64,000 nt of DNA from an uncultured Candidatus Saccharibacteria bacterium (GCA_964591445.1 CAZQAW010000002.1:3394-67393); one strand, 5' to 3'; positions 12,147 to 63,313 are shown, counted from the stretch's first letter. The notes: generated by a model not told the origin, from the sequence alone. Program-made: numbers and translations.

Positions 12147-12164
12147 ATGCAAAAATTCTGGTTG

Positions 12165-37019: not shown

Positions 37020-37022
37020 TTG

Positions 37023-38624: not shown

Positions 38625-38625
38625 A

Positions 38626-40191: not shown

Positions 40192-40192
40192 G

Positions 40193-41188: not shown

Positions 41189-41234
41189 TAGCTTAAGTAT
41201 AAAATACTTTGTATGAAAATACGAGGGAAAAGTC

Positions 41235-43067: not shown

Positions 43068-43068
43068 A

Positions 43069-43722: not shown

Positions 43723-43756
43723 TAGGTTTAGTATAGCACTTACTCTTTTATTTTAT

Positions 43757-43870
43757 GGTGTGTATTCCTCCTCTCCTAGCCAGGAGAGGACTACGGCTTG
43801 CCGAGTGGTGAGGTTGTTTGTTCCTGAACTCAACCTCACCCCGAACCTTCGGTCGACCCTCTCCTAGCCA
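43757..43870. repeat. GC-rich nested-palindrome element, copy c (composite): CCTCTCCTAGCCAGGAGAGG ... GTGGTGAGG ... CCTCACCCC GAACCTTCGGTCGA CCCTCTCCTAGCCAGGAGAGGG.
   Basis: Contains the same outer (CCTCACCCC/GGTGAGG), linker (CCGnACnTTCGnTC) and inner palindrome modules as copy a. Lies in the intergenic region between the virB4 N-domain gene and the prgI-like gene. Confidence 0.6.
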
Positions 43871-43879
43871 GGAGAGGGT

Positions 43880-44290
43880 TTATTTCTTTTTCACGTCCAA
43901 CACGTCGAGCGACCATGCCATGTCTTTGAGCTTGCTTTCGGAGAGTTTTGGTACGTATGAAGATGTTGGAATCGAAGATGCAGCTTCTTTGTTTATCTCA
44001 GACTGATCTCTCGGTATTTTCTTCCAGACGTAGAGTTTGCTCTTGCCGATGTATGCGATGTATGACTGCAAGATGTCAATAAAAGGCTTGTCGTTGACTT
44101 TGTAAAATGTGAGCGCAAGTGAAAGTGCGGCAATAGGAAGCATGATAAGCACAGCAAAAAAGAACGGCAAGATTTTGTAGATGACGAAACATATTCCCGC
44201 ACCGCCGGCCAAATACAAGAATTGTCGGAACGAGAACGGCCCAAAGATCTTGTCTTCAACGTCGATGAATTGTGGAACTTTGAATTGCAT
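43880..44290 (-). CDS. PrgI/VirB3-like small membrane protein of type IV secretion systems.
   Basis: MQFKVPQFIDVEDKIFGPFSFRQFLYLAGGAGICFVIY plus a second TM helix: the PrgI-family N-terminal pattern (x.FGP.t.RQF.yl). Confidence 0.5.
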   Translation of the reverse strand: MQFKVPQFIDVEDKIFGPFSFRQFLYLAGGAGICFVIYKILPFFFAVLIMLPIAALSLALTFYKVNDKPFIDILQSYIAYIGKSKLYVWKKIPRDQSEINKEAASSIPTSSYVPKLSESKLKDMAWSLDVLDVKKK

Positions 44291-44293
44291 ATA

Positions 44294-44980
44294 TTAGACC
44301 GCTTCGCGATAAGGATCTTTCACTGGTGCTTCATTTGAAGCGGGTTTTGGTGTGGGAGGATTTGGAATTGCTGAAGGCGCAACCGGCGTATAAGTTGTTT
44401 CCTTTTTCGGCAAAGAAAATGTTCCAGAAAGTTGCTCTTTGACAAAAGAAGGCTTGCCTGAAGTCGGATTCTCGATGCCATTTAAAATATTAGCGCGGGA
44501 TTGGAGAGGAGAACTTTTTGAAGAAATTGTTACAGGCGCTGACACGGGTGTAACTTTTGGTGCCTCAATTTCAATGCCTGACTTTTTAAGCGTGTCTGAT
44601 TCGATACTGCTTACCTCGTTATTTTCTGTTTGATCGTCCTCTTCCCCCACATCGTTAATCTCTTTCAATTCTTCTCTTATCACCGCAAAGATATCTGTGT
44701 TTACTTCATCTACGATTTTACCTACCACTACAGTATCTGTAATACCAAGCTTTTCTTCAAGCTCATGTTGGTAGTTGTTTGGAGATGTTGCGCCGAGCAT
44801 CACAAATGTAGTTATGAGCTCAAGGTCTCCGAGTTGAGAAATCGTAAGGTTATTTTTTTTACCAATTTCTACTAGCTTGCGTTGGTAGTCAGAAGACATG
44901 ATAGCCTTCTGTAAAGACTCCGGCACATTTGCGTACAAGTCTTTAAGTGTCTGTATGATTTCATCTTGCGTTGGTTGCAT
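44294..44980 (-). CDS. Hypothetical soluble protein in the T4SS-like locus.
   Basis: ORF coupled (3-nt gap) to the prgI-like gene. Pro/Ser/Thr-rich C-terminus. Confidence 0.4.
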   Translation of the reverse strand: MQPTQDEIIQTLKDLYANVPESLQKAIMSSDYQRKLVEIGKKNNLTISQLGDLELITTFVMLGATSPNNYQHELEEKLGITDTVVVGKIVDEVNTDIFAVIREELKEINDVGEEDDQTENNEVSSIESDTLKKSGIEIEAPKVTPVSAPVTISSKSSPLQSRANILNGIENPTSGKPSFVKEQLSGTFSLPKKETTYTPVAPSAIPNPPTPKPASNEAPVKDPYREAV

Positions 44981-45020
44981 ATATTTTTAGTATAGCGCAC
45001 TTTTTGTTTTCTAGTAGTGT

Positions 45021-48000: not shown

Positions 48001-48098
48001 GGAGCAAGCATGCTTCCCCCTACTATTCCTATCATCGCTATGATAACTACGATTTTTTTGAACATGTGTATGGTGTATACAGAAATAACCTGGCCCAA
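45021..48098 (-). CDS. VirB6/TrbL-like polytopic membrane protein (about 8 TM) with a long charged coiled-coil C-terminal extension and a His-rich tail.
   Basis: N-terminal signal, a cluster of hydrophobic helices (IFILLWVGIGTILG, VILVALLLNFSLFFARVVIDA, IIISLIMTVINCIGIWVFASVAFLF, FVVPVFMFFMYLIIMFM, ILGVLIPLLIIVTLLM), then K/E-rich sequence and HLPHAPHTHATYH. Confidence 0.45.
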   Translation of the reverse strand: MGQVISVYTIHMFKKIVVIIAMIGIVGGSMLAPVFSARAQTYAKLNLANGGTTLSGTTSTWKILVTSSGVDPNDDEVTISIWEKDTSGANAVKTKIVTDAPVTLNPDGTGVYETAAVLKNTFTYSAVASSDTGISLGTGTVSQNGVVSNAIEISIDNQGIPTEVQNNTSSVTSSVSNGLGGPTTSVGNNSLPTCDILESDTWAGCFARAFYYIFFVPTSFLFSLSGQLLDWAMGFTLDSNSYKGSGATFVEQGWKIARDIANIMFIFILLWVGIGTILGNHNVNAKNTIKNVILVALLLNFSLFFARVVIDASNILGGVFYNNICGGMYVDGKCVSNDKVENVWINENTRNVSTAIVSKFNPQTIFQQATTLKLTSQSGVPEAVGVNGAPPPGQFIIISLIMTVINCIGIWVFASVAFLFMARVAGLWILMIFAPIAFISLIMPSSGGKILGEMSFSSWWSKLISQAFVVPVFMFFMYLIIMFMNTNFFRDLGSDKTTTQIILGVLIPLLIIVTLLMRARKIALDMSGEIGGAVVKAGTALAGGAIGLAAGGYALAGRATLGRLGYNATQNQGLKDAAAKKGLSGMMARATLAASNKLATSTFDARNTAVGNKLSEKTGMNLNKGLSFAGLDTKSTDGGWLGLQARKAEKDDKYGKSLGYDEHKYKDEEKKIEKEKDKQTNYKDIKEDLQNQIRIENARIKTLPDKSDEKNAAQKKVADLTQKAALVDQNIRAYEKGGKVFAMNAQGEYVDKNGKVVATKAQSSMEESLGIQKMEKNKERIKTAREKQWQSTLMRRSGKRYLDDERDELDNIKEFGKEITSSHISELRTELGDKRGKALAAQDTAREVGKEVLELDKKIAEAKKKGTTITEAETRQREQLKERYAQLLEKSKKASKEMRSTQNKLSQAQSTILKTNWEGTKQIMEELGKGFAQGSGLVLAGATGAGMINEGFAPGSTVVAASIVGGVQAIRRAIEWSGKTNESHSQGHLPHAPHTHATYHEPSGGQDTPSKSSGHSEAKADSHGH

Positions 48099-48196
48099 CG
48101 TGGACAGAATACAACTTTAGTATATCATTTACTCCTTAAGAAAATACGAAAAAACAGTGCAAAACTTTTGTTTTGCACTGTTTTTCTTTGTTTTAT

Positions 48197-50470
48197 TTAG
48201 TAGACACCCAAGTTGCTTTCAAGTATTGGTACACCAAATGCGCTGTTGATGTTGATGACATCGGTAACGTGAATTTCGGCGTAGGCTCCGTTTGGCAATC
48301 CCCCTCCGTAGAACACGTCATCCAAGAATACACTGGTTGTTGGTATAAGTGACGCTGCCTGTTCTTGGACAGAAAGCAAGTCTTTTGGATACGATTTGCG
48401 TTGTGTTGGTCCGGTGTATGTGGTGCCGACGTTTGAGCCAGTCTTGTCGATACCGTCCACTTCTTTGCGGCAGCGGTAAAAGAGGTCTACTGCGTCTCGT
48501 GTGTCAAACTCTATCTGGTATATCTCAGCTTCCAAGTTCTTTACATCGTCTCCTGTTACCAAATTTGAGGTCATGGCTTGGAATGTGCGCACCAGTTTTT
48601 CGTATTCGGTATTGTTAGGGTCAGTTTGGTACGCGGCAAGGGCCTGTGGAAGTTGGCTGTTGATGTAGGTAAGCTTGCTGATATTTGATTTCATCTGCCC
48701 GATCTGCGCTTCGATTTCGGTGTATTCGTTCTGATAAGTCGGAAGTGAATTGTATAACTGGTTGATCTCTGCTGTTACTGTCGGCATGTTGAATACATTG
48801 AACTTATCCTTCATGATATCGATAAAGCCTTTGAGTTTGACCGGCGGATCATTCTCGCTCATGCCGCCTTCGATGATACGTTGGACGAGAGATATGGTTC
48901 GTTCTTTTGACATTGCGCTGTTTGTATCAACACCGGTGTATGCTCGGAACAAAACAGTAAAGAATGAAGCGATACCACTTGCTTTTTGTATTTCTGTCAA
49001 AGCCGTTGCTTCGTTTTGGTATACCGTATCTTGCCAGTTTGCGGCTGGGCCGGGCAAGCAGAAGTCTGCTTTGTAAATTGCCGGAAGCATCTGGTTGATC
49101 GCGCCAGTTTTTGTAAGCTTGTTTGCCCCATACGTATTCCCCGGTCCAAGACGATCCAAGTAATCTTGCTGGTCTTGTATAATTCCCGGAAGTCCAGTGT
49201 TGATATCAAACTCATTTGCTGGATGGTTCCAATGTGTTTGTGATACACCAGACCCTCCGTTTGAAGATGATCCTGTGTTGCTGCCTGAACCTCCGTTGTA
49301 TTGATAAGGATTTGTGCCAGAGCTTGAAGTATCTGCAAGCGAGCTCAAACCTTTTTGCATCATCTGGTTCAAAAGCGCGTCAAATATTGCCGTAAGCGAT
49401 GCATCCAAATCTTCACTGTTGATCAAAGAGTCTGTAGGAATATCGAGCGCGGTGTTGAGCTGATGTGAAAGCACTCCACCCGGTGTGCGAGTTTCTTCAT
49501 AAGTACAAGTATATTTACGCAAACGTTCTTTTGCCGCATTAATGTCTGCTTGATTATAAGATGCTCCATCAAATGGTTCATAACTTCCGGTATTGTTAGA
49601 AGCCTCGGGTGTGGGGAGGCCTGCAATAATCATGTCCTCGCTCTTGTCCCAGTCTGCCGGTGGTTCTTCGTAGTCGCTTGGCTCTACACATACTTTCAAA
49701 GAAAGAAATCCAAAGTTGTTTTGAAGATCTGTTTTTATTTCCTGTATCCTGTTTTGTCCATAACCGGCAATTCGACGAGAAAATTCGTCGCCGGTAATGA
49801 TAGTTGCGCCGATCTGGTTGTTCTGCGGAAGTTGGGTCATTGCAAGCCATCCGTCCCAACCCCCGACGGCAAAGTCGGCTTGGAATTGTTGTGCTTGCGC
49901 CGAACCAATAACTTTGTCTAAACTATATTGCGCGTACATGGAAAAATTTGCTTGAAGTGAGGCAATCAAGTTGCGTGCAATATCTTTACCGAAAGGAGAA
50001 ACGATCTGTATTTGCGCCGTCAAACTCATGAGTTCTTCGTCAGCGATACTTTTGAAAAATCTACCGGGGTTCTGTACGAATGCTGGGGAACCTTTGAATC
50101 CAGTGTTAATCCAGTTCACTGTCGCTTGAGTGATCTTTCGGAGCAATGTTTGTGCGGCAGCACGAGCAATTTTTTTCAAACAAGTTTCTTTGTTTTCAAG
50201 TGCTTTGGTCGCTGGGTCGTTGGTGTCTACTGCCCCACTTGTCAAACCTTCAAGCTTGCTTGACCCCAAGTTAAGAAGTTTGTTCAATCCGCATCCGATA
50301 CCAGCGCCAAGTATTGGGCCTGCACCTTGGAAGATGCTTGCTCCGCCGGAGAACTGCGCTTCAACCTTGCTTACTTCAATGATGAACAAGCCTTGTCCAA
50401 GTACTCCGACAAAAACGATGACTGAAAGTATTTTTTGTAGCCAGGACTTCATACGTTTGTAGTATATCAC
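48197..50470 (-). CDS. Large membrane-anchored extracytoplasmic protein (757 aa), function unknown.
   Basis: N-terminal TM (ILSVIVFVGVLGQGLFII) with the remainder predicted to be extracytoplasmic. Overlaps the next gene by 4 nt. Confidence 0.4.
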   Translation of the reverse strand: MIYYKRMKSWLQKILSVIVFVGVLGQGLFIIEVSKVEAQFSGGASIFQGAGPILGAGIGCGLNKLLNLGSSKLEGLTSGAVDTNDPATKALENKETCLKKIARAAAQTLLRKITQATVNWINTGFKGSPAFVQNPGRFFKSIADEELMSLTAQIQIVSPFGKDIARNLIASLQANFSMYAQYSLDKVIGSAQAQQFQADFAVGGWDGWLAMTQLPQNNQIGATIITGDEFSRRIAGYGQNRIQEIKTDLQNNFGFLSLKVCVEPSDYEEPPADWDKSEDMIIAGLPTPEASNNTGSYEPFDGASYNQADINAAKERLRKYTCTYEETRTPGGVLSHQLNTALDIPTDSLINSEDLDASLTAIFDALLNQMMQKGLSSLADTSSSGTNPYQYNGGSGSNTGSSSNGGSGVSQTHWNHPANEFDINTGLPGIIQDQQDYLDRLGPGNTYGANKLTKTGAINQMLPAIYKADFCLPGPAANWQDTVYQNEATALTEIQKASGIASFFTVLFRAYTGVDTNSAMSKERTISLVQRIIEGGMSENDPPVKLKGFIDIMKDKFNVFNMPTVTAEINQLYNSLPTYQNEYTEIEAQIGQMKSNISKLTYINSQLPQALAAYQTDPNNTEYEKLVRTFQAMTSNLVTGDDVKNLEAEIYQIEFDTRDAVDLFYRCRKEVDGIDKTGSNVGTTYTGPTQRKSYPKDLLSVQEQAASLIPTTSVFLDDVFYGGGLPNGAYAEIHVTDVININSAFGVPILESNLGVY

Positions 50471-51378
50471 TCTCTTGCGAAATATTGCTGTAGAATTTCA
50501 AGTGCATTGCCAGGTTCTTCTCCATATTTCTCATATTGCGCAAGCCCCACAAGCCCAACAAGTGGGTTGTCGTAGAAATACGTCATGTTCGATACTGCTA
50601 CGCCGGTTTTGTATGACGCATTTGCAAAGTCAAGTGCGAGCTTCGCGGTTGCTTGGGGTACTTCTATTTTTTTGACTGCCTCAGCTAGGTCAAGATATGC
50701 CTTGCCTATCGTCTCAAGCTCTTTTGCTTTGCCTTCGTTCGCTTGGTCGATCGATGTTTCGAGTACGACAAGTTCGGTACCGATGCCTTTTTTCAGATAT
50801 GTTTCAAGAGTTTTGTCGAAGTTTTTTGCAAAGCTTGTATTCGTGCCGCCGGTTTTCATGTCGGCAAGTGTGTATTTGTCCTCGATATCTTTTTGCAAAG
50901 CCGCGTTCTGGCCGATCTTCTCTGCCAAGTCGTTGATGGATTGTTCTGTCAACGCCCCGGCTTCTTTAAGAGAAATGACTGTTGCGAAAATTTCTTTTGC
51001 AAAAGCTTCCGTTTCGTTGTCGTTCATTTCTATCTGCTCATCAAGGCTTGCGCCGGTTTTGATGGCGACTTGGCGTTTGCGTTCGTCGATCTCTGCTTTG
51101 TCGCTTGTGCCGTCTTTGTCGGTGTCCGCACTTGTTGCATCCGTTCCCCATAGAGCTTCTTCCCAATCCGGAATGCCATCTTTATCGGAATCTTGCGTGA
51201 CAAGTTCTTGGACCGTCGTGTGGATGACTTCTTCATTTTTTACGATCACTTTTTTCTGGTAGCGTACATACAGCCACACCGCTATGCCTACAATAAGCAG
51301 TATGACGATGATCGTTGTAAATTTTTTGCTCGGTAAATAACGCTTCATATTACTTGAATTTCGGAGTTTTAGACGCAC
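50467..51378 (-). CDS. Membrane-anchored protein with TSP3/dockerin-like Ca-binding Asp repeats.
   Basis: DSDKDGIPDWEEALWGTDATSADTDKDGTSDKAEID repeats follow an N-terminal TM. Confidence 0.4.
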   Translation of the reverse strand: MRLKLRNSSNMKRYLPSKKFTTIIVILLIVGIAVWLYVRYQKKVIVKNEEVIHTTVQELVTQDSDKDGIPDWEEALWGTDATSADTDKDGTSDKAEIDERKRQVAIKTGASLDEQIEMNDNETEAFAKEIFATVISLKEAGALTEQSINDLAEKIGQNAALQKDIEDKYTLADMKTGGTNTSFAKNFDKTLETYLKKGIGTELVVLETSIDQANEGKAKELETIGKAYLDLAEAVKKIEVPQATAKLALDFANASYKTGVAVSNMTYFYDNPLVGLVGLAQYEKYGEEPGNALEILQQYFARE

Positions 51379-51712
51379 CGTAGAAAAGTACTGGAATCAC
51401 TGGGTAAGGTGTGCCCACATCAGTAAAACATCCTGGTGATGGAGCGGCTGCGTATTTGCCAAGTATTTGTTTACCGGCAGTTGGAGAGTTTACGCTTCCC
51501 GGAATTCCTATTGGGAAAAAGTAGTTTGTCGCTGGCCAAGCACCGTTGGGAACTATGGTTACCGGTCCATATCCTGCACAAGTTATGCCGGGAATGCTTG
51601 AAGATACGATTTTTGTACTACCAAAGTTGCGAGTCACAAATGCATCCGCATAATCAAAAAGCGCAAAAGATATAAGTGCGAAGAACAATATGACAAATGT
51701 AAGCCTTCTCAT
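51350..51712 (-). CDS. Small secreted protein. Start refined to MRRLTFVILFFALISFALFDYADA.
   Basis: Clear signal peptide at the internal Met. The longer ORF would overlap ksgA. Confidence 0.4.
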   Translation of the reverse strand: MRRLTFVILFFALISFALFDYADAFVTRNFGSTKIVSSSIPGITCAGYGPVTIVPNGAWPATNYFFPIGIPGSVNSPTAGKQILGKYAAAPSPGCFTDVGTPYPVIPVLFYGASKTPKFK

Positions 51713-54496: not shown

Positions 54497-54659
54497 AAGT
54501 CTTTCTACTATAGCACACCGCAAATCTCCCCTTTTCCCCAGAAAAAGCCTTACAAAATAAGAGTAATTTCGCTTGACAAATAGCTATCTATTGTGCTATA
54601 ATATAAGCAAATATAGAAAGAAACTAAATAAATATAAACACTCAAAAACCCTATACAAA

Positions 54660-55514
54660 ATGGAAGAAATTGTAAAAAAGTTAGCGGATCTTACAACTGC
54701 TGTAAACAATGGTTTTAGACAAACCAATGAAAACCTGGACAAATTGAATGGTACGGTAAAAGATGAAGGTCGTAAAACAAGAGGATTGGTAGGTTGGAAT
54801 TTATTCTTTACTCTACTCACTCTGGGGCTTGTTATTTATTGCTGTTTTTTCAATAGTGGCTGCAATAAAGTCGCAGAAGAAAAAGCTGTTCCTTGCAAGT
54901 TGAACACAGAAATGTGGGTGACTGGCGTAGGAGCCATCAGCGATCCCGAAGCACTTGCCGCGCTCAAAGGCACAGACACGATCTACCTCAGTTTTCAAAA
55001 AGCTGACGGAGAGCGTTTCAAAAAAGTGCTTACTTTGAACACCGCCCAACAGGCTGGCAGAAAGATCGAATACCTTATCGATTTCCAAAAGATTGATAGC
55101 GTACAAAACTTCTGCACATTCCTGGTACAGGATTTCCGGATTACTGATAAAGTGCTGGTTCAAGATACTGTGAAAACAATATCTTTGCCAAGCGTGCAAT
55201 CTGTTCCGAAATCCAAAGCCAAAATGCAGGAAGGATCTGATCCGGCTCCATCAGAACAGAAGCAATCTAATGCTTCAGGTTCAGGTGTTGTTGAGTATGA
55301 CAGGTCTATCACAGGCAGCACTCAAGCATTTATAAAAATGCGTGATGGTTCGGTAAAGAAAAGGACACTTACCCTTGAAGATGGAACCAACAACTTGCTT
55401 TGGGAAAACACTGCTGATATTGTGGCAGTGAATCCCGAAATAAAGTCTGGCGATCATGTAAAAATTTTAGTAATGAATAAGCTTGATTCTTTGTTTCAAC
55501 AAACAACAAAATAA
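54660..55514 (+). CDS. Hypothetical single-TM membrane protein.
   Basis: Start refined to MEEIVKKLADL. TM segment LVGWNLFFTLLTLGLVIYCCFF. Confidence 0.4.
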   Translation: MEEIVKKLADLTTAVNNGFRQTNENLDKLNGTVKDEGRKTRGLVGWNLFFTLLTLGLVIYCCFFNSGCNKVAEEKAVPCKLNTEMWVTGVGAISDPEALAALKGTDTIYLSFQKADGERFKKVLTLNTAQQAGRKIEYLIDFQKIDSVQNFCTFLVQDFRITDKVLVQDTVKTISLPSVQSVPKSKAKMQEGSDPAPSEQKQSNASGSGVVEYDRSITGSTQAFIKMRDGSVKKRTLTLEDGTNNLLWENTADIVAVNPEIKSGDHVKILVMNKLDSLFQQTTK

Positions 55515-55532: not shown

Positions 55533-55568
55533 AAAAGCCGATGCATACAGTATGCATCGGCTTTTTTT
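55533..55568. terminator. Bidirectional terminator AAAAGCCGATGCATA-CAG-TATGCATCGGCTTTTTTT.
   Basis: 11-bp perfect stem flanked by A and T tracts, between convergent genes. Confidence 0.6.
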
Positions 55569-58500
55569 ATTTCTTCACGTTTTCAAGATACTTTGTTGAA
55601 ATGAGGTATAGATCTTCCAAGCTTTTGTTTGGATTTTTATTGAGCCAGACGCGGTTCGCCCGTTCTATATAATGTTCAATAGTTTCTTTGTTTTCTACGT
55701 CAATAGAAAGTTGTGTCGTTTCAGTAAGCTTTTTCATATATGCCCACAAGCGATTGAGTTCTCCGTTTGGAGAATCGTGAATAGTTTTTTCAGTCATTTT
55801 AAATAGGTTTGCCGCAGATTCACCCTTTACCTCTTTCCACATTGTACTCTTGCTGAGATCATCAACTTTAAATATCTTTTCATAGATATCTGCTGTTTGA
55901 ACTTCCGGAGAAGCAGCTGCTGGTTGTGGTATGTTTTCCGCTGGAGTATTTCCTTGTACTGGCGGAGTGTCTTCTGGCGCCGGAGCACTGTTTTGTGGAG
56001 GAGGGGTGCCTGTATCAAGATCGTCAGCGCCACTTTGGAAGAAGTCTTGTTTCTGAGAGCCCTGGAAGTTTCCCCGGCTTTTATTGTTCTGATTCCATGC
56101 TTCTTCTTTTATTTGAGAAGTATTATTACCTCCGTTATTGCCCTTGTCCCAAGCTTCTTCTTGTATGGTTTGTCTATCAGCTCCTCCTCTATTGCCTTGA
56201 TTCCACGCTTCTTCTTGGATAGAGCTTGCCGGAGTACTTGTTCCATCTGTTACCCCTCGAAGTTTGCGCGCGCCTTCGACAATATCGCTTCTGTGGAAAT
56301 CAGTAATTTTCTCTTTTGTAATATCGTCATGTCCGTGAATACCTGTTGCAAATTCTTTGCCGTCTGCTCCGATTGCTTTTTCTATATCGTCTGCGTGAGC
56401 GATCTTGAGCCATGTATCTGTTTTGATATTGCTGAGCTCTCCCGTTGCGCCGCCGAGCTTATTTCCCTTCCAAAGTTCTTCAGAATGTTTTTCAAGAACG
56501 TTCATCAAGTTGTTGAACTTTGTGTGGTCTACAATTTTGAGAATTCCTGTTGACTTATCAAATGAGAATGAATCTTTGAATGCGCTCGTGCTTGCGCCGA
56601 GAACGTTCCTGCCTTCTGAAAGTTTGACCAAATTTGCCGCAACGTTCAAGCTCTTTGCGCCAATTTCTTCGTTCAACAAGTCGTTCGGTACTTGCATATG
56701 GTCCATGGCGATCTCGTGAAATACTCGTTCAAGTTGCACAGGTACTCCGTTTTTACCAAGTATGACAGAAAAGTCTTGGGTAATGCCGCGTTCAACCAAA
56801 GCTTCTCCTGTTTTTTGAGTTATTGTGCCGTCCGGATTGTGCACCCCGTCTTTTGTTCGTAGATATTCCGCCGCACCCTTGTCTACGCCGGCTTCGGAGT
56901 ATTGGTGAAAGTCTGGCGCGGTCGGAGTTCCCGGCATGTCGATTTTTTCAGCAGAACTGAACATGTCTTTAATGCTGTCTCCGTATTCGTTCCACAAATG
57001 ACGTGCGCCGAAACCGAGTCCTCCGAAGATGAGACCTGTCGTTGCACCTTTCAACATAGACAATTTCACTAAAGACTTCGCTGCTTGTTCGCTTTGCTCT
57101 TTAGTAAGATTTTCTTGTTTCATTCTTTCCGCAATAACACCTGCAAACTTTGTTTCAAATTTTTCTGTTAATGCTTTGAGAGCTGCGGCATCCTTGCCTT
57201 TCAAATCTCCATATTGTGCAAGTGGAGATGCCATAAGAAGTGCATATCCTTTGTTCATCGCAGTTTGCATTGCGTATTTGTTTGTAAATTGCTGGTGTGG
57301 CTGTCCAAAGTCAATGACATTTTCGTCGAGCTCTTTTTGAGCAATAGCGAGACGGTTTGCGAGAAAACCTTGTCGAAGAGCGAATACTTCTTTGGCTGAT
57401 GCATATTCTTCTGTAAGTTCTTTTTTATCTTCTTCGCTTGCAGTTGCAAGAGCTTGTTCGAGTCCAAGCATGCGGTTTTGTGCAGATTCAAAACTTTTCC
57501 ATGCAATACTTACCTTTCCAGTAAGACCGCCGCTCATCTCTCTTTTTACCCCTGTGCTTGTATTTGTAATAATCTTCTTTTCATCGAAAGCTTTAAATTT
57601 TGAAAGCAGTTTTTCTTTGAGTTCTTCTTCTTTCAGTTTGCCGGTGTATTTATTCCATGCTGTGTCTTTTACTTTTTCGTCTCGAATACCCGCTCGAGCT
57701 TTTACCAATGTTTCGCGCACATTTTCTTTGCCTTTAAAATATCCGCGAAGTGCGCCAAGTGCTGGGGCAATTACAAGTCCGGCCCAGTTGAGTACCCCAA
57801 TTGTCTCAGCTCCACCACGAACAGTGTAGCCTGTCACAAACGACAAGCTTGGCAACATTCCTTTCTTTGTTACAACTCCAAGTTGTGCGCCGGCCGCTGC
57901 AGCCTGCATCGCATCCGGATCTTTGGCGATACGCTGGTTAAAGTCGATGTTGGCATCGATCATGCGCAAGTAGTCAGTCGCTTTTTGTTGATCGTTCCCA
58001 AATTTTGCAAGAAGGAGCGAACTTATTTTTTCTCGTTGCTTGTTGTATTTTTCTTCCGCTGCGTCGAAGTCTGATTTTTTGTGGAAGTCGGCAAATCTTC
58101 CGGACATGAATTTGTCTAGCTTGCTGCTCTCGTCGAGTCCCCATTCGCTCGGCATGTCGCCAAAGTTTGTTGCTTGCCGGTTGAAGGCTTCAACTATTTT
58201 TTTCTCTTCAGGCGTCAAGTTCTCAAGTCCGTGCGCGTATTCGATGTTAAGCTGCCCTGTTTCAGAGTCTTTAACTGCGCCGAGTCCGGTATTTTTGACG
58301 CTTTCAAAAATAGCTTTTGCGTATTTGCCGTAGCGTTTGAAGCCTTCCTTATAAACAAGCGTTTTTGCTTTTTCTTTGTTTGCTTCTGTGAAACCAGCTT
58401 TGAAAAGCTTTTTCCAGCCAAGAAATCCTTTCCCTTCTTTTTCATAGATTTCTTTTGCCGCTTCTTCTACCAAATCTACCCGTACTTGCCGCAAGTTGTG

Positions 58501-59157
58501 AAGCACCATGTTCTGCAAACTTTCGTTCATTTCAGAAAAACCCGGCAGCTCCTTCATTGGATCAAAGCCGAATTCGATACGGAATGTGTCTCCCATTTTA
58601 CGGCTCTCTTTTTCTTTTTTCTTATTTGCTATTTCTTGATCCGCTCGGCGTTTTGTTTCCCATTCAGGTACCACTGGGCCGATAAAATTTTTGGATCCTT
58701 TTTCTCTTAACTCTCTTATCTCGACAGTTTCTGCTGGCCATTTTTCCCGGATGATATCGTTTATCTCGGCGGTCTTGTTTGCAAAGATATCTTTTTCTGC
58801 AGGATCAAGATCTGTGTGGTCTTTCACTTTTTGCGCGATGAGTTCGAGGCGGTATGCCGATACTTCTCCAGTATTGAGGAATTTCTGATATTCTGCTTTG
58901 GAAATGACAATATTAGAAGCGTTGTGTTCAGCTTTTGCCTTAGCCAATGTTTCGGCAAGTTCTGTTGCTTCTTTATTGACTTTTTTATGAGCTTCATTTC
59001 TCTTTTTTTCTGCGTGCATTACAATATTTTCCTCATTCATAAGGCGTGCTTTCTTCTTGCGCAGTTCCTCTTTTGACGGGAGGCTTATTGCTCCTTCAAG
59101 TTCATTTGACATATATGTAGTATACCTTAAATTGTATAAAGTTATGCGGTACTTCAC
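55567..59157 (-). CDS. Giant hypothetical protein (1196 aa): coiled-coil-rich, two internal hydrophobic segments, and C-terminal tandem EEAWNQGN repeats.
   Basis: Long uninterrupted ORF. No N-terminal signal peptide, but it has internal hydrophobic stretches (GVLNWAGLVIAPALGALRGYF, GATTGLIFGGLGFGA) and three ~17-aa tandem repeats near residues 979-1030. Confidence 0.45.
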   Translation of the reverse strand: MKYRITLYNLRYTTYMSNELEGAISLPSKEELRKKKARLMNEENIVMHAEKKRNEAHKKVNKEATELAETLAKAKAEHNASNIVISKAEYQKFLNTGEVSAYRLELIAQKVKDHTDLDPAEKDIFANKTAEINDIIREKWPAETVEIRELREKGSKNFIGPVVPEWETKRRADQEIANKKKEKESRKMGDTFRIEFGFDPMKELPGFSEMNESLQNMVLHNLRQVRVDLVEEAAKEIYEKEGKGFLGWKKLFKAGFTEANKEKAKTLVYKEGFKRYGKYAKAIFESVKNTGLGAVKDSETGQLNIEYAHGLENLTPEEKKIVEAFNRQATNFGDMPSEWGLDESSKLDKFMSGRFADFHKKSDFDAAEEKYNKQREKISSLLLAKFGNDQQKATDYLRMIDANIDFNQRIAKDPDAMQAAAAGAQLGVVTKKGMLPSLSFVTGYTVRGGAETIGVLNWAGLVIAPALGALRGYFKGKENVRETLVKARAGIRDEKVKDTAWNKYTGKLKEEELKEKLLSKFKAFDEKKIITNTSTGVKREMSGGLTGKVSIAWKSFESAQNRMLGLEQALATASEEDKKELTEEYASAKEVFALRQGFLANRLAIAQKELDENVIDFGQPHQQFTNKYAMQTAMNKGYALLMASPLAQYGDLKGKDAAALKALTEKFETKFAGVIAERMKQENLTKEQSEQAAKSLVKLSMLKGATTGLIFGGLGFGARHLWNEYGDSIKDMFSSAEKIDMPGTPTAPDFHQYSEAGVDKGAAEYLRTKDGVHNPDGTITQKTGEALVERGITQDFSVILGKNGVPVQLERVFHEIAMDHMQVPNDLLNEEIGAKSLNVAANLVKLSEGRNVLGASTSAFKDSFSFDKSTGILKIVDHTKFNNLMNVLEKHSEELWKGNKLGGATGELSNIKTDTWLKIAHADDIEKAIGADGKEFATGIHGHDDITKEKITDFHRSDIVEGARKLRGVTDGTSTPASSIQEEAWNQGNRGGADRQTIQEEAWDKGNNGGNNTSQIKEEAWNQNNKSRGNFQGSQKQDFFQSGADDLDTGTPPPQNSAPAPEDTPPVQGNTPAENIPQPAAASPEVQTADIYEKIFKVDDLSKSTMWKEVKGESAANLFKMTEKTIHDSPNGELNRLWAYMKKLTETTQLSIDVENKETIEHYIERANRVWLNKNPNKSLEDLYLISTKYLENVKK
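56068..56223. repeat. Three tandem ~51-nt in-frame repeats inside the 1196-aa ORF (IQEEAWNQGNRGGADRQT / IQEEAWDKGNNGGNNTSQ / IKEEAWNQNNKSRGN).
   Basis: Visible both in the DNA (CCAAGCTTCTTCTTG-type units) and in the protein. Confidence 0.6.
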
Positions 59158-61895
59158 AACTTCTTTTCTATTGTCGAATATATTTTTTGAGCAACTTCAA
59201 GCTTGTCAGTCAGGATTGTATATTCTTTGTTATTCTCACCTTTTTGCAATTTATGCATGCGTCGTGCGTATTCTATTGCATCTCGTTCTTTTCCGACATC
59301 ACGCAGGTCCTGAACAGTATAGGTCTTCTTGTTTATTTCTTCAATGCGTTCTTCTACGAGTTTTTTGTTCTGAATTAGTTCTTCATCATTGAGCCATTTA
59401 AGCTGTGTTTTGTTAGGAGCTTCGTATTTTACAAGCGACTCGGTTGCTTTGACTGGTGCTGTTGAAAGAGGTACGGTTGAGCGAATCTCTCGCGCCTTTG
59501 CCATGGTTGTTGCAAGTTCGGCATTCTCTTCTTCTTGAGCAATTTCACGCTCCATTTTCTCTATTGCTTCAATCTCGTCTCGGATCGCCTTTAAATGTAT
59601 TTCATTTATTTTTGCGTCTTGGTCGAGGATTTCCGCTTCACGCATCTTCTCTTTCACTTTCTTTTCCAGATCTTCGATCTTCTCTTCAAGCTGCACACGC
59701 GCTTTTTCTTTCTGATACGCCTGAGCCTTTTCGCTCAGGACTTTTATTTTTGGAGCGTATGTATTGAGCTTAGTATCTTTGTTGAGAAGTCCGCAGATCT
59801 CGAGAAACTTTTCTTTTGTCAGTTTGTCTCTGCCCTTTGCATCTTTGCCAGGAAGTACCATTACTCCACGAACTAGTTTTGCGCCAGGGACTATTTTGCG
59901 GATTTCTTTAATAATCGGGCGCAGATCTTTTGTTGTGGAGTTGATGAAGAAAGAATTATTTCCTTTGCTGTAGGTTGCAAAAGTATCATAGCCTTTTGCT
60001 TTTGCGGCCAAGTACCCTTCTTTAAGATAATTGCCGGGAATTTTTTCACCCTTTGCATTTGTTTCGTCGTCCATTGTTGCAAAAACAGTTTTACCGAGTA
60101 CTGCACTTTCTGTTAGGATGCCTTGCTTCTTCATTTCCTCGGCTGCAACATCAAGATATTTCATTGAATCTGCCGCATGGTTTCCACGTAAGGTAATGAG
60201 TTCTCTGATTGAAACTTTCTTCTCAACATACTTGCCGCTTTTCTTGTCTTTGACTCGGATTTCTGTAAACACAGTATCGAACTCCTCGTCTTTGAACGGT
60301 TGTTTCGGATCGCGCCCTTCTTTGATAAGTTCTATTACTTTTTGGTACGGCAAATAAGAATAAAGTGCTTCAAGACTTTTTGGCCACTCGGCTTGGAAGA
60401 ACGGTGGTTTGAAATTTTTACTATCCGCATAAGATAAATTATCCACTTCATTTGTGAATTTCCCGAGTTTTTCCATCCACGGCTCAACTTCGTAAGCTTT
60501 AGCTTCGTTCATAATTCTAAGAACTATGTCTCCAGCCGAAGTTCGCGTATCATCAGTTTCCTTGTGATGATCAGCAAAAGCCATGACCAATTCGCCATCT
60601 TTTTCGATAGAAAGAGTACGCCGTCCAGTGTCGATGTGTAACACGAAACTTCCTTTTTTAAGAGGTTCTTCTATTTCGACTCCGTTTTTCGTTGCTGGAC
60701 GTGTAAGTTTTGATTTCTCACCTTTCATTACGAACTCTGTGTCCGCTCCGGAGTTATAAATAGTGGAAGCTCCGCGTTCTCCTTTTCTGCGTTGCTTGAA
60801 TTCTTGTCCGTAGTTGAGGAAGTACAAAGCGATCTGTGTGTCAAAGTCGAGCATTGCGGTTTTTACTGGTTCTTGCTCGCCAGTATCTGGGTTTTCTTCG
60901 TAGCGCGGTTCACCGTGTACTACCACGCGGTCGATGCCGTGTTCCTGCATATATTTCGCTATCTCTTGTATAGTTGCCTGCTGTGCAACTTCTTTGCTAT
61001 TTTTTGTTTCGTACTCGCCTTCCTTTAAGGCTTCTTTGAATTCTTCTTTTGTATATATCTTTTCACCAAGACGTGTTTCGAGCTTTACTTGCTTAGTTTT
61101 TTTATCAAACCCGATCACTTTTGCTTCTGCGCCCATGAAGCTAAACACGTCACCTTTTTTCATAGTCTTGATTGTTTCGTCTGCTTGGCGGCCGCGAAGC
61201 TCTTTTGCAAGCTCTTCGTCGCTCAAACCTGCTGGTCTATTTATTTTTGGTGTGGGTGCTTTTGGGGTAGTCATGGATTTTTTAGTGCTTTTAGATCTGG
61301 CTACTTTTGGTTTGGTTTCTGCCGCTATTTTGGCATCAGGTTCTTCGTCTTTCGTATCGTCTGTAAATTCATAGGTAGCTGTTGGCGGTTCGGGGATAGC
61401 GGGAGGTCCCGGTATTTCCTCTGGGGGTTCTTTGTTTTCGATTGCGGGCTCGGCTGGTGCTGGTACTTCCGGTGTTTCTTCGACAGCAGCCACCTTTTCT
61501 TCTTCGGGCTTAAAAATATCTTCTAGTTCTTTCCGGCTCTGTACTATTGTATCTATCCAGAACTGTTCGGTTTTCTCAGATATCTGAGTTTCTGGCCTTA
61601 ATGTTCTTGAGAAGGTGCTTATAAGGTTGTGAGCCGCTTCTTCTTCCCCAGCCAGAACTCTTTCAATGAACATTTTTACTACCCCGTCAACTCGTGATGC
61701 ATGTTTTTCTTTCCTCGCCTCTATGATTGCGTCGTCTGAGTTTATAAACTCAGCAAGTTCTTTTATTTTTTGAGTAAGCCGTACCTCTTGTTGCTTTAAA
61801 TGGTCCGCATTCTCAATAGACATACTAGTAGTATACCCCCTTGACACCATATTTTTATGGGGAAATCTTAATCCACACTTTTTCCACATGGCCAT
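59154..61895 (-). CDS. Large hypothetical protein (913 aa) with a possible DHH-like phosphoesterase core. Translationally coupled (ATGA overlap) to the 1196-aa ORF.
   Basis: AFADHH at residues ~440-444, preceded by VLHIDTGRR and NPDTGE (loosely DHH motifs I-III). Acidic Pro-rich N-terminal region and a C-terminal coiled coil. The domain call is weak. Confidence 0.4.
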   Translation of the reverse strand: MAMWKKCGLRFPHKNMVSRGYTTSMSIENADHLKQQEVRLTQKIKELAEFINSDDAIIEARKEKHASRVDGVVKMFIERVLAGEEEAAHNLISTFSRTLRPETQISEKTEQFWIDTIVQSRKELEDIFKPEEEKVAAVEETPEVPAPAEPAIENKEPPEEIPGPPAIPEPPTATYEFTDDTKDEEPDAKIAAETKPKVARSKSTKKSMTTPKAPTPKINRPAGLSDEELAKELRGRQADETIKTMKKGDVFSFMGAEAKVIGFDKKTKQVKLETRLGEKIYTKEEFKEALKEGEYETKNSKEVAQQATIQEIAKYMQEHGIDRVVVHGEPRYEENPDTGEQEPVKTAMLDFDTQIALYFLNYGQEFKQRRKGERGASTIYNSGADTEFVMKGEKSKLTRPATKNGVEIEEPLKKGSFVLHIDTGRRTLSIEKDGELVMAFADHHKETDDTRTSAGDIVLRIMNEAKAYEVEPWMEKLGKFTNEVDNLSYADSKNFKPPFFQAEWPKSLEALYSYLPYQKVIELIKEGRDPKQPFKDEEFDTVFTEIRVKDKKSGKYVEKKVSIRELITLRGNHAADSMKYLDVAAEEMKKQGILTESAVLGKTVFATMDDETNAKGEKIPGNYLKEGYLAAKAKGYDTFATYSKGNNSFFINSTTKDLRPIIKEIRKIVPGAKLVRGVMVLPGKDAKGRDKLTKEKFLEICGLLNKDTKLNTYAPKIKVLSEKAQAYQKEKARVQLEEKIEDLEKKVKEKMREAEILDQDAKINEIHLKAIRDEIEAIEKMEREIAQEEENAELATTMAKAREIRSTVPLSTAPVKATESLVKYEAPNKTQLKWLNDEELIQNKKLVEERIEEINKKTYTVQDLRDVGKERDAIEYARRMHKLQKGENNKEYTILTDKLEVAQKIYSTIEKKL

Positions 61896-62012
61896 TGACT
61901 TTGGTCGGCGGGTCGGCTACCATTTAAAGTACCTCTGAATGGCAGACTTTTCCCAAAGTCCTTATAATATAAGGGTTTTTACGGGGAAACAGCAGAAAAG
62001 CCTTATAAAATC

Positions 62013-63170
62013 GTGAATTTACAACCCTCACAAGACTCTCCTGGTCCCGAACGATTAGCATCGGTTGGTCCAAAGACGAAAAAAGCCTTATTTTACAAGG
62101 GTACATATGCCCAAGCTTCTTTTTTGTTGCTTGCGACTTTTGCCCTCGTTTTCCCTCCGATGGTCTCTCAGGCTAGTCTTTTCTCATATATTGTGGGAGA
62201 AAAAGCAGATGCGGCTGACCAAGCTATAGTAAAAAATGCTCCTAACTCCCAAACTATCGCTCTTTTGGAAGCAAGCCCTCGCATTGACCCTCTTTCGACA
62301 GAGTCAAATGACACTACTATATATAACAGCTCGGCCCTTGCTCCGGAAACTGGCCCGCTTGGTACGGTTGCCGATGTGGCGCTCGCTCCCGAGACAGATC
62401 AGATCAGCCTTTACGTCGTAAAATCTGGCGACACTATTTCTTCTATTGCCAAAATGTTCGGCGTGAGTACAAGTACGATCCGCTGGGCGAACGACCTTGC
62501 TTCCGGACAAAGTGTTGCTGAAGGCGCTGTTCTCACTATCCTCCCTATTTCCGGCGTTGAACATACCATTACCAAAAACGACACTTTGAAGAAAATCGCC
62601 GCACGATATGGCGCAGATATGGATGACGTTGCGTCTTTCAATGGTATTACCGAAGACACCGTGCTTGAAATCGGTTCGACTATTATTGTGCCAGACGGCG
62701 AAGTTGCTCCGGTAGAAACCAAGACAGTGAAACCGACTAAAACTGCCGACACAAAGGCCAAGAAACTTGCGACTGCAAAAGTGTTGCAAGCGAATTTGCC
62801 TACAGTTGAAGGCTTCATCCGGCCGATCATCGGTGGACGCAAGTCTCAAGGTTTGCACGACAGATACGCCATCGACTTGGCTGCGCCGATCGGAACTCCG
62901 ATCATGGCTTCAGCTGGAGGAACTGTGCTTCTTGCAAAAATGGGTTACAACGGCGGCTATGGAAACTATGTTGTTGTTAAACACGACAATGGAACACAAA
63001 CTTTGTACGCGCACATGAGCAAGATCGGCACAACTGCCGGCGCGACTGTACAACAAGGCGAAGTGATCGGCTACGTAGGTTCAACAGGACGTTCAACTGG
63101 TCCGCACGTCCATTTCGAAGTTCGAGGTGCTAAAAATCCTGGAGTTACTCCTGGAGTTTGGGAAAGATAA
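62013..63170 (+). CDS. LysM-domain peptidoglycan M23 metallo-endopeptidase.
   Basis: Two LysM repeats (YVVKSGDTISSIAKMFGVSTSTIRWAN; ITKNDTLKKIAARYGADMDDVASFNG) and an M23 core (HDRYAIDLAAPIGTPI...VVVKHDNGTQTLYAHM...GSTGRSTGPHVHFEV). Confidence 0.85.
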   Translation: MNLQPSQDSPGPERLASVGPKTKKALFYKGTYAQASFLLLATFALVFPPMVSQASLFSYIVGEKADAADQAIVKNAPNSQTIALLEASPRIDPLSTESNDTTIYNSSALAPETGPLGTVADVALAPETDQISLYVVKSGDTISSIAKMFGVSTSTIRWANDLASGQSVAEGAVLTILPISGVEHTITKNDTLKKIAARYGADMDDVASFNGITEDTVLEIGSTIIVPDGEVAPVETKTVKPTKTADTKAKKLATAKVLQANLPTVEGFIRPIIGGRKSQGLHDRYAIDLAAPIGTPIMASAGGTVLLAKMGYNGGYGNYVVVKHDNGTQTLYAHMSKIGTTAGATVQQGEVIGYVGSTGRSTGPHVHFEVRGAKNPGVTPGVWER

Positions 63171-63198: not shown

Positions 63199-63313
63199 CC
63201 AAAACAATAAAACAAACATTCTGAAAGCAAGCTATAATTTTCTGCTGAAAATTTAGCCTGCTCGGCTCGACAGCCTCCGCAAGGCTTTCATAATATTTGT
63301 TTTATTGTTTTGG
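63199..63313 (-). ncRNA. Candidate structured RNA or repeat element, copy 3, in minus orientation. The core sits inside a ~30-bp stem whose outer arm overlaps the last four codons of the comM-like gene.
   Basis: Reverse complement of 63229-63284: AAGCCTTGCGGAGGCTGTCGAGCCGAGCAGGCTAAATTTTCAGCAGAAAATTATAGC. Arms CCAAAACAATAAAACAAACATTCTGAAAGC / GCTTTCATAATATTTGTTTTATTGTTTTGG have two mismatches, one of which is a G-U wobble only on the minus-strand RNA. Confidence 0.45.

Follow-up and report, generated by a model that had tools for sequence, protein, structure and literature searches.

The described enzymes closest to the proteins considered here share a DHH/DHHA1 fold. RecJ is a 5'-3' exonuclease of single-stranded DNA, represented by solved structures from Thermus thermophilus (2zxo) and Deinococcus radiodurans (5f56). 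The NrnA/NrnB nanoRNases and pAp phosphatases are soluble DHH/DHHA1 proteins of ~300–400 aa that bear a GGGH motif, which binds the substrate phosphate in NrnA as well as in GdpP. GdpP, for its part, is a membrane-anchored DHH/DHHA1 enzyme and consists of one chain, in which N-terminal transmembrane helices, a PAS domain and a degenerate GGDEF domain come before DHH/DHHA1. In archaeal GAN and eukaryotic Cdc45, the DHH fold is able to act as a docking subunit for replicative helicases.

The ultra-small Patescibacteria (CPR) account for much of the diversity of bacteria; their hosts supply nucleotides, and their type IV secretion system (T4SS) is essential and relaxase-less. This system, of an MPF-FATA-like type, is suspected to be a protein exporter, and many unannotated genes lie around virB4 (PMC12102498; PMC10633639). 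Genes of the kind described below are not mentioned in this role in either paper. The window analysed here, 64,000 nt of DNA from an uncultured Candidatus Saccharibacteria bacterium, holds two such genes, A and B, near a T4SS-like cluster. On the evidence of sequence and structural modelling, it is moderately probable that A and B each supply one of the two subunits of a Patescibacteria-specific, membrane-tethered phosphoesterase of the DHH superfamily, which in some relatives would be a single polypeptide.

Gene A is the upstream ORF (59154–61895, minus strand) and gene B the downstream one (55567–59157, minus strand). Read mechanically, they encode 913 and 1196 aa; the starts in the public record, ATG 61823 for A, with AAGGGGG just before it, and ATG 59112 for B, are the probable ones and would yield 889 and 1181 aa. 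These starts leave a spacer of 42 nt between the genes and no overlap, and the spacers in orthologues measure 41 and 8 nt. An earlier note on this DNA had described an ATGA overlap through which translation would be coupled, which is not what the junction reads: the sequence is ...TTG TGA / GTG AAG, i.e. GTGA, and the GTG of B is likely just the first start found mechanically. The two ORFs themselves are real, as that note held. They lie on the same strand with no terminator between them and with a strong one after B, a bidirectional intrinsic-terminator hairpin with a 15-bp stem (55533–55565) that forms the 3' end of the A-B unit. Beyond it stands a convergent gene for a 313-aa membrane protein (54573–55514, plus strand), conserved beside B in close relatives. 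At the other end, a divergent intergenic region of 117 nt (61896–62012), presumed to hold the promoter, separates A from a LysM-Peptidase_M23 gene (62013–63170, plus strand). Both N-termini are non-hydrophobic, in agreement with the absence of signal peptides noted before.

Protein A is laid out, from N to C terminus, as a presumably helical region, an acidic Pro-rich linker, a small domain, a DHH/DHHA1-like core and an extension that is probably helical too. The linker (residues ~130–205; 61281–61508, minus strand), with 15 P and 20 D/E in 76 aa, bears out the acidic Pro-rich N-terminal region recognized earlier, and no hydrophobic segment occurs in the protein. The core (residues 296–720; 59736–61010, minus strand), defined by AlphaFold2, Foldseek and family matches, was modelled by AlphaFold2 with a pLDDT of 90.4 and a pTM of 0.88. 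It resembles RecJ in having two lobes joined by a long helix, which spans model residues 268–295 (563–590 of A), and RecJ is its best structural match. In Foldseek searches of the PDB, the top 17 matches were all RecJ, GAN, RecJ-like or RecJ2 proteins, with 2zxo first (E = 3.3e-5, probability 1.0), and those with E ≤ 4e-3 were all RecJ, GAN or RecJ2. The best BFVD matches were a phage RecJ-like exonuclease and, second, a phage NrnB, and only DHH-family proteins were found among the significant matches in the two databases. The TM-scores were low (≤ 0.38), which may be due to the hinge between the two lobes.

Within the core, the four DHH motifs follow the metal-ligand pattern of RecJ. Motif I is LDFDT (residues 349–353; 60837–60851, minus strand), with D350 in 85/87 and D352 in 87/87 family members; motif II is HIDTG (60624–60638, minus strand), with D422 in 87/87; motif III is ADHH (60564–60575, minus strand), with D442, H443 and H444 in 85/87, 87/87 and 87/87; and motif IV is EVDNLSY (60429–60449, minus strand), with D485 and N486 in 86/87 and 87/87. 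In the C-terminal lobe, a family-specific Arg-Gly pair, R676-G677 (R676 at 59868–59870, minus strand; R in 86/87), appears to take the place at which canonical DHHA1 domains carry GGGH, a motif absent from the sequence of A. The earlier note had spoken of a weak DHH-like core with motifs NPDTGE, HIDTG and AFADHH. The second and third were correctly placed, while motif I is LDFDT and not NPDTGE, and the resemblance, judged by motifs and fold, is real and far stronger than weak. By fold and catalytic motifs, A is thus shown to contain a genuine DHH-superfamily catalytic core, for which hydrolytic activity is predicted.

The family of this core is large, with matches to 420 cluster representatives (clusters at 50% identity), 101 of them at E ≤ 1e-30. 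All eight residues D350, D352, D422, D442, H443, H444, D485 and R676 are kept in 121 of 152 members, ~20% deviating at one or more of these sites, and the 87-sequence core alignment shows no exception at H443, H444, D352 and D422. It can be argued that metal ligands intact in 80% of members, together with four invariant residues, reflect selection on catalysis. The deviating members, and the allele of A in a sister strain, A', which has DNH at motif III and IDS at motif IV, suggest that catalysis may not always be needed. Such departures, the presence of GAN/Cdc45-type proteins among the fold matches (5ghr and 7e15) and the helicase genes that flank the locus would fit a non-catalytic DHH fold serving as a binding module, as in Cdc45/GAN, that uses B to hold UvrD, ComM or the T4SS ATPase at the membrane. 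This reading is highly improbable in view of the complete ligands and invariant residues in the family; moreover, A shows no sequence relationship to GAN or Cdc45, its catalytic residues are strongly conserved, and there are no CMG-type partners.

Despite its fold, A is not a RecJ orthologue, since it has no OB domain, no GGGH and no match to a sequence model. Its identity to RecJ is ~10%, and neither PF01368 (DHH) and PF02272 (DHHA1) of Pfam at curated thresholds nor the NCBIfam recJ model matches A; among 40 relatives, Pfam DHH gives weak matches to three (E 2.5e-4 to 1e-2) and DHHA1 to none. Where RecJ has its OB-fold domain, Pfam RecJ_OB finds nothing in A and the core is followed by K/E-rich sequence; K/E-rich extensions in fact lie on both sides of the core, and Arg-Gly stands for the second-lobe GGGH/GGH. 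Further differences from RecJ are an obligate membrane partner or fusion and a distribution limited, as far as seen, to Patescibacteria. With hhalign, the A family placed motifs II–III onto VDNG...TDHH of E. coli RecJ, albeit at a non-significant E of 0.12, and PDB sequence-profile searches with A returned low-complexity and coiled-coil noise plus a weak match to uncharacterised 6mtz of H. pylori over motifs III–IV. The earlier note had set a RecJ-like protein with all catalytic motifs against its own proposal of an undescribed type: the four DHH-domain motifs and the RecJ-like fold are there, and RecJ orthology is not. An undescribed type is in keeping with the scans of A and B against Pfam, NCBIfam, PHROGs and PADLOC, in which nothing was significant, and public sources name the members "hypothetical protein". 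The homologue search was word-indexed and returned only 3–4 relatives each for A and B, K/E-rich words having saturated the candidates, and concatenated domains of B as query yielded none; the metagenome scan gave 4 loci and the genome scan 3.

Protein B, all of whose features lie on the minus strand, begins with a strain-variable N-terminal tail (residues 1–179; 58621–59157), exchanged along with A in the sister strain. It is followed by a conserved N-domain, predicted to be cytoplasmic (~190–420; 57898–58590), which is kept in P0007 and in the B-like proteins of loci L009, L012, L013 and L017. A Gly/Ala-rich hydrophobic segment (~430–474; 57736–57870) is predicted from hydropathy and flank charges to be a re-entrant hairpin, and a second hydrophobic segment (~695–720; 56998–57075) to be an in-to-out transmembrane helix, again from hydropathy and charge. 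Two internal hydrophobic segments had been claimed for B, and they are found at 448–474 and 695–712. Then come a conserved post-TM domain (~790–960; 56278–56790), predicted to be extracytoplasmic and common to the A-B fusion proteins described below, three tandem 18-aa repeats (980–1033; 56059–56220) of the form I(Q/K)EEAW(N/D)(Q/K)(G/N)N..., and a Pro-rich linker (~1040–1090) with a C-terminal helical domain (1091–1196), both within 55570–56040. The positive charges on both flanks of the hairpin recur in 17/17 relatives, and the charge pattern supporting the topology is consistent across 17 proteins, the second hydrophobic segment of this B being weak (mean hydropathy 1.13). Hydropathy and charge, the only bases of the assignment, predict an N-in topology with a hydrophobic hairpin, one transmembrane helix and the C-terminus out; the envelope-spanning character once suggested for these proteins is plausible for B as a membrane protein.

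The triplicated repeat reported earlier at ~17 aa corresponds to the three EEAW units of 18 aa each. The units are 39–56% identical in protein and just 54–63% in DNA, for which reason Tandem Repeats Finder did not detect them at the DNA level. As to variation in their number, proposed earlier as a check, there are likewise three copies in a 94%-identical orthologue and two divergent copies in a 38%-identical one. In sequence terms B belongs to no known family, its domains matching neither Pfam nor PDB sequence profiles. The remote-homology approach put forward before, Foldseek on AlphaFold models, led to a RecJ-like fold for the core of A, while the model of B, from a 4-sequence alignment, is unusable (pLDDT 39). 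Coiled coils, listed in the earlier note, are at most possible: the features that speak for them are helices by DSSP in this low-confidence model and a K/E-rich composition.

A and B are functionally linked, as judged from sequence comparison: they are adjacent, they occur fused in the same slot, and their alleles are replaced jointly. A B-like gene lies directly downstream of an A-like gene in L001/L007, L004, L009, L012, L013 and L017 (E 4e-23 to 1.8e-31), and a broader B-type membrane protein occupies the same slot in L002, L015, L016 and L008, so that the two are neighbours even in distant Patescibacteria. In the fusion proteins P0064, P0087, P0108, P0117 and P0084, a single chain combines the A core, the hydrophobic pattern and the post-TM domain of B (E 1e-14 to 4e-21); P0064 sits in the slot between M23 and UvrD, and at the locus of P0017 a separate B gene is absent. 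A linker of ~230 aa connects the core to the membrane segment in these fusions, which suggests that the K/E-rich C-terminal extension of A (residues 721–913; 59157–59735, minus strand) constitutes half of the interface with B. To judge from its sequence and the composition of the whole protein, this extension is probably helical or coiled-coil.

A hydrolase of the DHH superfamily at the cytoplasmic face of the membrane, as predicted for A-B, is a concept shared with the GdpP/Pde c-di-AMP phosphodiesterases. The pair might act as a membrane-anchored phosphodiesterase for the messenger c-di-AMP/pApA, or for pAp or nanoRNA, with A controlled by the external part of B, which would sense the envelope. 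GdpP offers the precedent, the best fold matches of the core include NrnB, the predicted external region of B is large and conserved, and a peptidoglycan hydrolase gene adjoins A. The chance of this reading is modest, however, since Pfam detects neither PAS nor GGDEF and no TM segment was found in A; the anchor comes after the enzyme and is here a separate, C-terminal-type partner, unlike the N-terminal TM helices of GdpP. In addition, the phosphate-binding GGGH is replaced, and the best matches among solved structures are of RecJ type rather than GdpP or NrnA. From NrnA/NrnB the family differs in that its core resides in membrane-linked proteins of 650–1450 aa. Short soluble members of the A family exist elsewhere in these genomes, e.g. 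P0027 with 374 aa.

The pair occupies a fixed chromosomal slot in the order LysM-M23, A, B, UvrD, KsgA and T4SS, near dnaA; dnaA and dnaN are both in the window. The LysM-M23 gene, divergent from A, is the slot's invariable left border in every related locus, and the order PNPase, DksA-zf, ComM, M23, slot, UvrD, KsgA and T4SS recurs in Paceibacteria, Paceibacterota and Saccharibacteria. The nearby T4SS-like cluster holds a VirB4-like ATPase and a T4SS pilin. The pair had been described as standing next to a T4SS and a LysM-M23 gene; the latter is indeed adjacent, but UvrD, KsgA and the convergent gene intervene between the T4SS cluster and the pair. Co-occurrence with VirB4, proposed at that time as a check, is borne out by conserved synteny with the T4SS/M23 neighbourhood: the order slot, UvrD, KsgA and T4SS holds in every locus with enough sequence, although linkage alone is no proof of function. 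The neighbourhood that suggests a link to DNA handling may be simple conserved origin-proximal synteny, of the kind shared with the Patescibacteria T4SS loci described before, where KsgA and virB4 are also nearby (PMC12102498; PMC10633639). In S. epibionticum, the hypothetical protein SEML1_0073 has a "DHH phosphoesterases" domain by DPAM and a growth defect in Tn-seq (PMC10633639), and it may be a relative of the A family.

This neighbourhood underlies the proposal that A and/or B are substrates of the T4SS, or surface proteins passed on to the host cell, the more so because the relaxase-less system is suspected of protein export (PMC12102498, PMC10633639). The proteins are also large, repeat-bearing and fast-evolving (A 54% and B 38% identical, vs 77% for UvrD and 87% for ComM), and an allele has been replaced between close strains. 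We regard a role as effectors as very unlikely. An enzyme's active site is conserved in A, whose relatives include fusions to membrane segments, and UvrD and KsgA always stand between the pair and the T4SS genes. No homology to known VirB/Prg/Tcp/Trs components or to effectors was found for A, B and eight relatives with Pfam, NCBIfam, PHROGs and PADLOC, and neither protein is homologous to any recognised component of the Patescibacteria T4SS. The secreted or translocated effector of the earlier note is therefore unsupported: A has no signal peptide, its relatives are fused to a membrane anchor, and the slot is fixed across classes of Patescibacteria. A phosphoesterase or nuclease complex that is split in two and tethered to the membrane is the reading that fits best, rather than a secreted effector.

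Comparison with the sister strain revealed a replaced cassette (58622–61829, minus strand) that comprises all of A and the 5' end of B, i.e. its first ~180 codons. Blastn detects no similarity between its DNA and that of the sister strain, while the flanks are ~93% identical, and A' shares 23% identity with A over 270 aa. In the sister strain (locus L004), the corresponding pair lies at 7197–9992 and 10001–13330. The block that varies is the predicted cytoplasmic part, A and the N-tail of B, rather than the external part, which again argues against effectors. Origin-proximal synteny is otherwise conserved here, and the slot stands out in it as a hotspot of allele replacement. Replacement of a cassette between strains could also be expected of cargo of a mobile element or phage, such as a tape-measure-like protein with a nuclease, or of a defence system inserted beside the T4SS, and B is broadly like tape-measure proteins in its size, helicity and Gly-rich hydrophobic segments. 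Such cargo has only the slimmest chance, as PHROGs and PADLOC give no matches, the IMG/VR scan holds no relatives, and all the genomes examined have the same slot filled and lack an integrase or other phage genes there. A phage or mobile-element origin of A-B was rejected on the empty IMG/VR scan and is largely refuted by the fixed synteny.

In the membrane-tethered phosphoesterase that is preferred here, A would be the cytoplasmic catalytic subunit, with its RecJ-like, two-lobed DHH/DHHA1-type core, a putatively intact divalent-metal site (DxD, D, DHH, D), the family-specific Arg on the second lobe and flanking K/E-rich extensions that are presumably helical. B would be the membrane subunit, consisting of a cytoplasmic tail and domain, the hydrophobic hairpin, a long helical region and one transmembrane helix, with ~480 residues predicted outside the cell: the conserved domain, three Trp-containing repeats, the Pro-rich linker and the terminal domain. 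The C-terminal extension of A may dock on the N-terminal tail of B, and phosphodiester substrates would be hydrolysed at the inner face of the membrane, while the external part of B may hold the enzyme at the cell envelope or regulate it there. Single-stranded nucleic acid or short oligonucleotides are the likeliest substrates, to judge from the RecJ-like fold and from ComM, UvrD and T4SS as neighbours.

A bolder proposal, speculative and decidedly unlikely as a whole, is that the pair forms a Patescibacteria-specific, membrane-embedded nuclease module that, together with the T4SS, ComM and UvrD, processes nucleic acid on its way across the envelope, its cassette being swapped between strains. 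Such a module might turn host DNA or RNA into nucleotides for organisms unable to make their own, or trim DNA during uptake; strains would exchange the cytoplasmic catalytic subunit together with the docking tail because both are targets in an arms race with phage or host inhibitors.

The present analysis brings to light an unannotated and widespread enzyme family with a fixed position beside the T4SS, and it yields seed alignments for two protein families absent from current domain databases. From two "hypothetical giant proteins" it also derives a concrete hypothesis that can be assayed, that of a predicted membrane-tethered RecJ-like hydrolase in Patescibacteria.

The ORF listing contains both of the large minus-strand reading frames described in the earlier note, that of the RecJ/DHH-like protein A (59154-61895, 913 aa) and that of its downstream membrane-protein partner B (55567-59157, 1196 aa), from which residues are numbered here. 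Their four shared bases had been read as an ATGA overlap that couples translation, but the junction is ...AAG TTG TGA / GTG AAG TAC..., which makes the overlap GTGA, and the GTG of B is merely the earliest possible start. Proteins in the public collection begin at internal ATGs, at 61823 for A (889 aa, with AAGGGGG ~12 nt upstream) and at 59112 for B (1181 aa), both on the minus strand. These starts leave a spacer of 42 nt, compared with 41 and 8 nt in orthologous pairs, and thus the genes are close, but coupling through overlap is not supported. No terminator-like site was found within the short spacer between these same-strand genes, while a bidirectional terminator with a 15-bp stem follows B at 55533-55565. 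Near-identical strings precede both probable starts on the minus strand (AAGGGGGTATACTACTAGT-ATG for A, 61824-61845; TTAAGGTATACTACATAT-ATG for B, 59113-59133), which suggests that A and B have a translation-initiation or regulatory motif in common.

Searches of A against curated models in Pfam, NCBIfam, PHROGs and PADLOC gave zero matches, and members of its family are annotated as ‘hypothetical protein’ in public sources. An exhaustive profile search with residues 296-720 of A plus two relatives recovered 420 cluster representatives (101 at E<=1e-30), which range from 280 to 1800 aa and in which the position of the core varies; one short member, a soluble protein of 374 aa, occurs in an unrelated gene context. 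In an alignment of 87 complete A-type cores, D352, D422, H443, H444 and N486 are kept in 87/87, T452, S453, D485 and R676 in 86/87, and D350 and D442 in 85/87, and the whole D-D-D-D-H-H-D-R set is retained in 121 of 152 family members. At the sequence level, these residues make up the canonical DHH pattern, with DxD as motif I, D as motif II, DHH as motif III and D as motif IV. The acidic Pro-rich stretch of the earlier note is present, and motifs II and III were named correctly there; for motif I, however, LDFDT (349-353) replaces the NPDTGE given in the note.

The AlphaFold2 model of the A core, built from a 40-sequence alignment (pLDDT 90.4, pTM 0.88), has two alpha/beta lobes connected by a 28-residue helix. 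Foldseek matches of this model belong to the DHH superfamily only: the top 17 in the PDB are RecJ of T. thermophilus and D. radiodurans, archaeal GAN, a D. radiodurans RecJ-like protein and M. jannaschii RecJ2 (best match RecJ, E=3.3e-5, probability 1.0), and among viral models a phage RecJ-like ‘repair exonuclease’ and NrnB rank on top. The TM-scores are low (at most 0.38, at 10-12% identity), which we attribute to a hinged two-domain protein compared at great distance. Sequence-level ties to DHH/RecJ are weak: Pfam DHH matches 3/40 family members (best E=2.5e-4), and an hhalign comparison with E. coli RecJ reaches E=0.12, with VDNG...TDHH paired with IDTG...ADHH. The ‘weak DHH-like core’ proposed previously is genuine in fold and active site, while its sequence links remain weak and its motif I had been misplaced. 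The family lacks the GGGH motif and the OB domain, and its second lobe carries a conserved Arg-Gly. By modelled fold and predicted active site, A is a very divergent member of the DHH superfamily; it is not an orthologue of RecJ, NrnA or GdpP. In Southlakia epibionticum, SEML1_0073, a 603-aa hypothetical protein of a core family scored NE/GD/GD by Tn-seq, bears the DPAM annotation ‘DHH phosphoesterases’ and no Pfam match (PMC10633639 supplementary tables); on the strength of this annotation it is a candidate relative of A among the Saccharibacteria, one whose effect on fitness can be measured.

B is an uncharacterised, new membrane-protein family. Few relatives were detected (94%, 38% and 27% identical), and B and eight relatives have zero Pfam or PDB matches. 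B is conserved in an N-domain (residues ~190-420), in two hydrophobic segments, the first of them rich in Gly/Ala, in the long helical region that separates these segments and in a post-TM domain (~790-960). The two internal hydrophobic segments noticed earlier lie at 448-474 and 695-712, the triplicated repeat consists of three 18-aa EEAW repeats (window 56059-56220), and, in line with the reported lack of a signal peptide, the N-termini of A and B are both hydrophilic. Flanking charges were compared in 17 proteins of the B-like or fused type: the first hydrophobic segment, which is long (25-40 aa), has positive charge on both sides, and the last is preceded by positive residues and followed by at most one. 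This charge pattern fits a predicted N-in/C-out topology with a re-entrant hairpin and one transmembrane helix; the AlphaFold2 model of B is unusable (pLDDT 39).

A and B belong together, as indicated by adjacency, fusions and co-replacement. Wherever a locus has sufficient sequence, it shows an A-type gene together with a B-type membrane protein in the same place, and a local HMM detects B-like proteins directly downstream of A-like genes in four additional, distant loci (L017, L009, L013, L012; E 1.8e-31 to 4e-23). Moreover, five A-family proteins (P0064, P0087, P0108, P0117, P0084) are fusions in which an N-terminal A core is followed by a helical linker, the two-part hydrophobic pattern and the B post-TM domain (E 1e-14 to 4e-21). 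The same hydrophobic pattern recurs in P0017, whose locus has no separate B gene, and in P0071, P0074, P0079, P0080 and P0083.

The pair resides near a T4SS-like cluster (37023-51378) comprising a VirB4-like ATPase (41235-43067), a T4SS_pilin domain (within 38626-40191) and a PG_binding_1 protein (37023-38624). With dnaA (33464-34864) and dnaN (32135-33232) beside this cluster, the region is origin-proximal, a placement reported for Paceibacteria in a 2025 survey of Patescibacteria T4SS (PMC12102498), which places KsgA, dnaA and numerous genes without annotation in the vicinity of virB4 and in which DHH, RecJ and UvrD were looked for and not found. In S. epibionticum, a Tn-seq study reports the T4SS, which has no relaxase or coupling protein there, to be essential (PMC10633639). 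MAGs of Paceibacteria, Paceibacterota and Saccharibacteria share the order PNPase, a ~320-aa protein, a DksA/TraR zinc finger, ComM, divergent LysM-M23, a variable slot, UvrD, KsgA, ~300-aa and ~950-aa proteins and further T4SS genes. The slot always contains A-type and B-type proteins, to which some genomes add DUF5663 and a ~550-aa protein; the P0064 fusion sits in exactly this slot (M23(-), DUF5663, 1516 aa, fusion, DUF5663, UvrD, KsgA). The possibility that the pair is mobile-element cargo is weakened by this fixed synteny and by negative phage and defence searches (PHROGs, PADLOC and IMG/VR, the last yielding no family relatives). In other Patescibacteria, DUF5663 genes (~100 aa) in the M23-UvrD slot were recorded at L015 6908-7216, L016 7100-7405, L002 210-518 and L019 4122-4412 and 12822-13127; they often precede a ~515-590-aa protein, the window carries none, and no mention of DUF5663 was found in the literature searched.

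A dispersed, structured intergenic element occurs at 16348-16390 (+), 36904-37020 (+) and 63202-63310 (core on -), with a further copy in the sister strain (L004 5765-5821). Its conserved core of ~55 nt (AGGCTGTCGAGCCGAGCAG...AAATTTTCAGCAGAAAATTAT) folds as two small hairpins and, in the two copies examined, is surrounded by a near-perfect stem of 27-31 bp whose sequence differs while pairing is preserved (MFE -72 and -54 kcal/mol, z about -9.5). No Rfam family was found for it, and its possible identities include a small RNA, a terminator and a REP-like element; two copies lie at gene 3' ends, one on either side of the stretch that runs from the T4SS cluster to ComM. Elsewhere, two large minus-strand ORFs without Pfam match (16485-19292, 935 aa; 19397-20845, 482 aa) adjoin a T2SS/T4P-type ATPase gene (21036-22739).

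Flanking DNA of the sister strain (contigs L004-L006) is ~93% identical to the window, and protein identities reach 97.7% for M23, 98.4% for UvrD, 99% for ComM and 94% for the remainder of B, but in window 58622-61829, which spans all of A and ~179 codons at the 5' end of B, the DNA shows no similarity to its counterpart. The sister allele A' (931 aa, motifs III and IV DNH and IDS) is a bona fide family member (E=2.7e-45), only 23% identical to A and from another sub-clade (nearest representative 32%). In the window, A and the N-tail of B are similar to their counterparts in a more distant Paceibacteria MAG, and it therefore appears to be the sister strain whose block was replaced. The A C-terminal extension and the B N-terminal tail are adjacent in DNA and exchanged together, and we infer that they form the subunit interface; in fusions, one continuous linker stands in for both. 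Further stretches without DNA match to this strain, which may be extra local hot spots of divergence, are 54669-54912 (N-terminus of a convergent 313-aa membrane protein), 51351-51641 (a small protein downstream of KsgA) and 47482-47980 (N-terminal region of a 1025-aa T4SS-cluster protein, 45021-48098). The earlier idea of a T4SS effector is weakened by the conserved active site together with the membrane anchor to which A is fused in relatives, and also by the predicted cytoplasmic location of the exchanged block.

The best-supported reading is that A and B form a predicted membrane-tethered DHH-type phosphoesterase, in which A would be the catalytic and B the membrane subunit, with the active site toward the cytoplasm and ~480 residues of B exposed to the envelope. 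A GdpP-like second-messenger phosphodiesterase and a non-catalytic Cdc45/GAN-like scaffold were also considered; nucleic-acid or oligonucleotide hydrolysis is the favoured prediction because the fold is nearest to RecJ and the flanking ComM, UvrD and T4SS handle DNA. The DHH superfamily is already known, but the literature searched contains no description of the A clade, of its architecture, in which a membrane module lies C-terminal to the hydrolase as a separate or fused part, of its constant location next to the T4SS of Patescibacteria or of the cassette replacement. For CPR biology, the A-B pair is a specific lead that can be put to the test.
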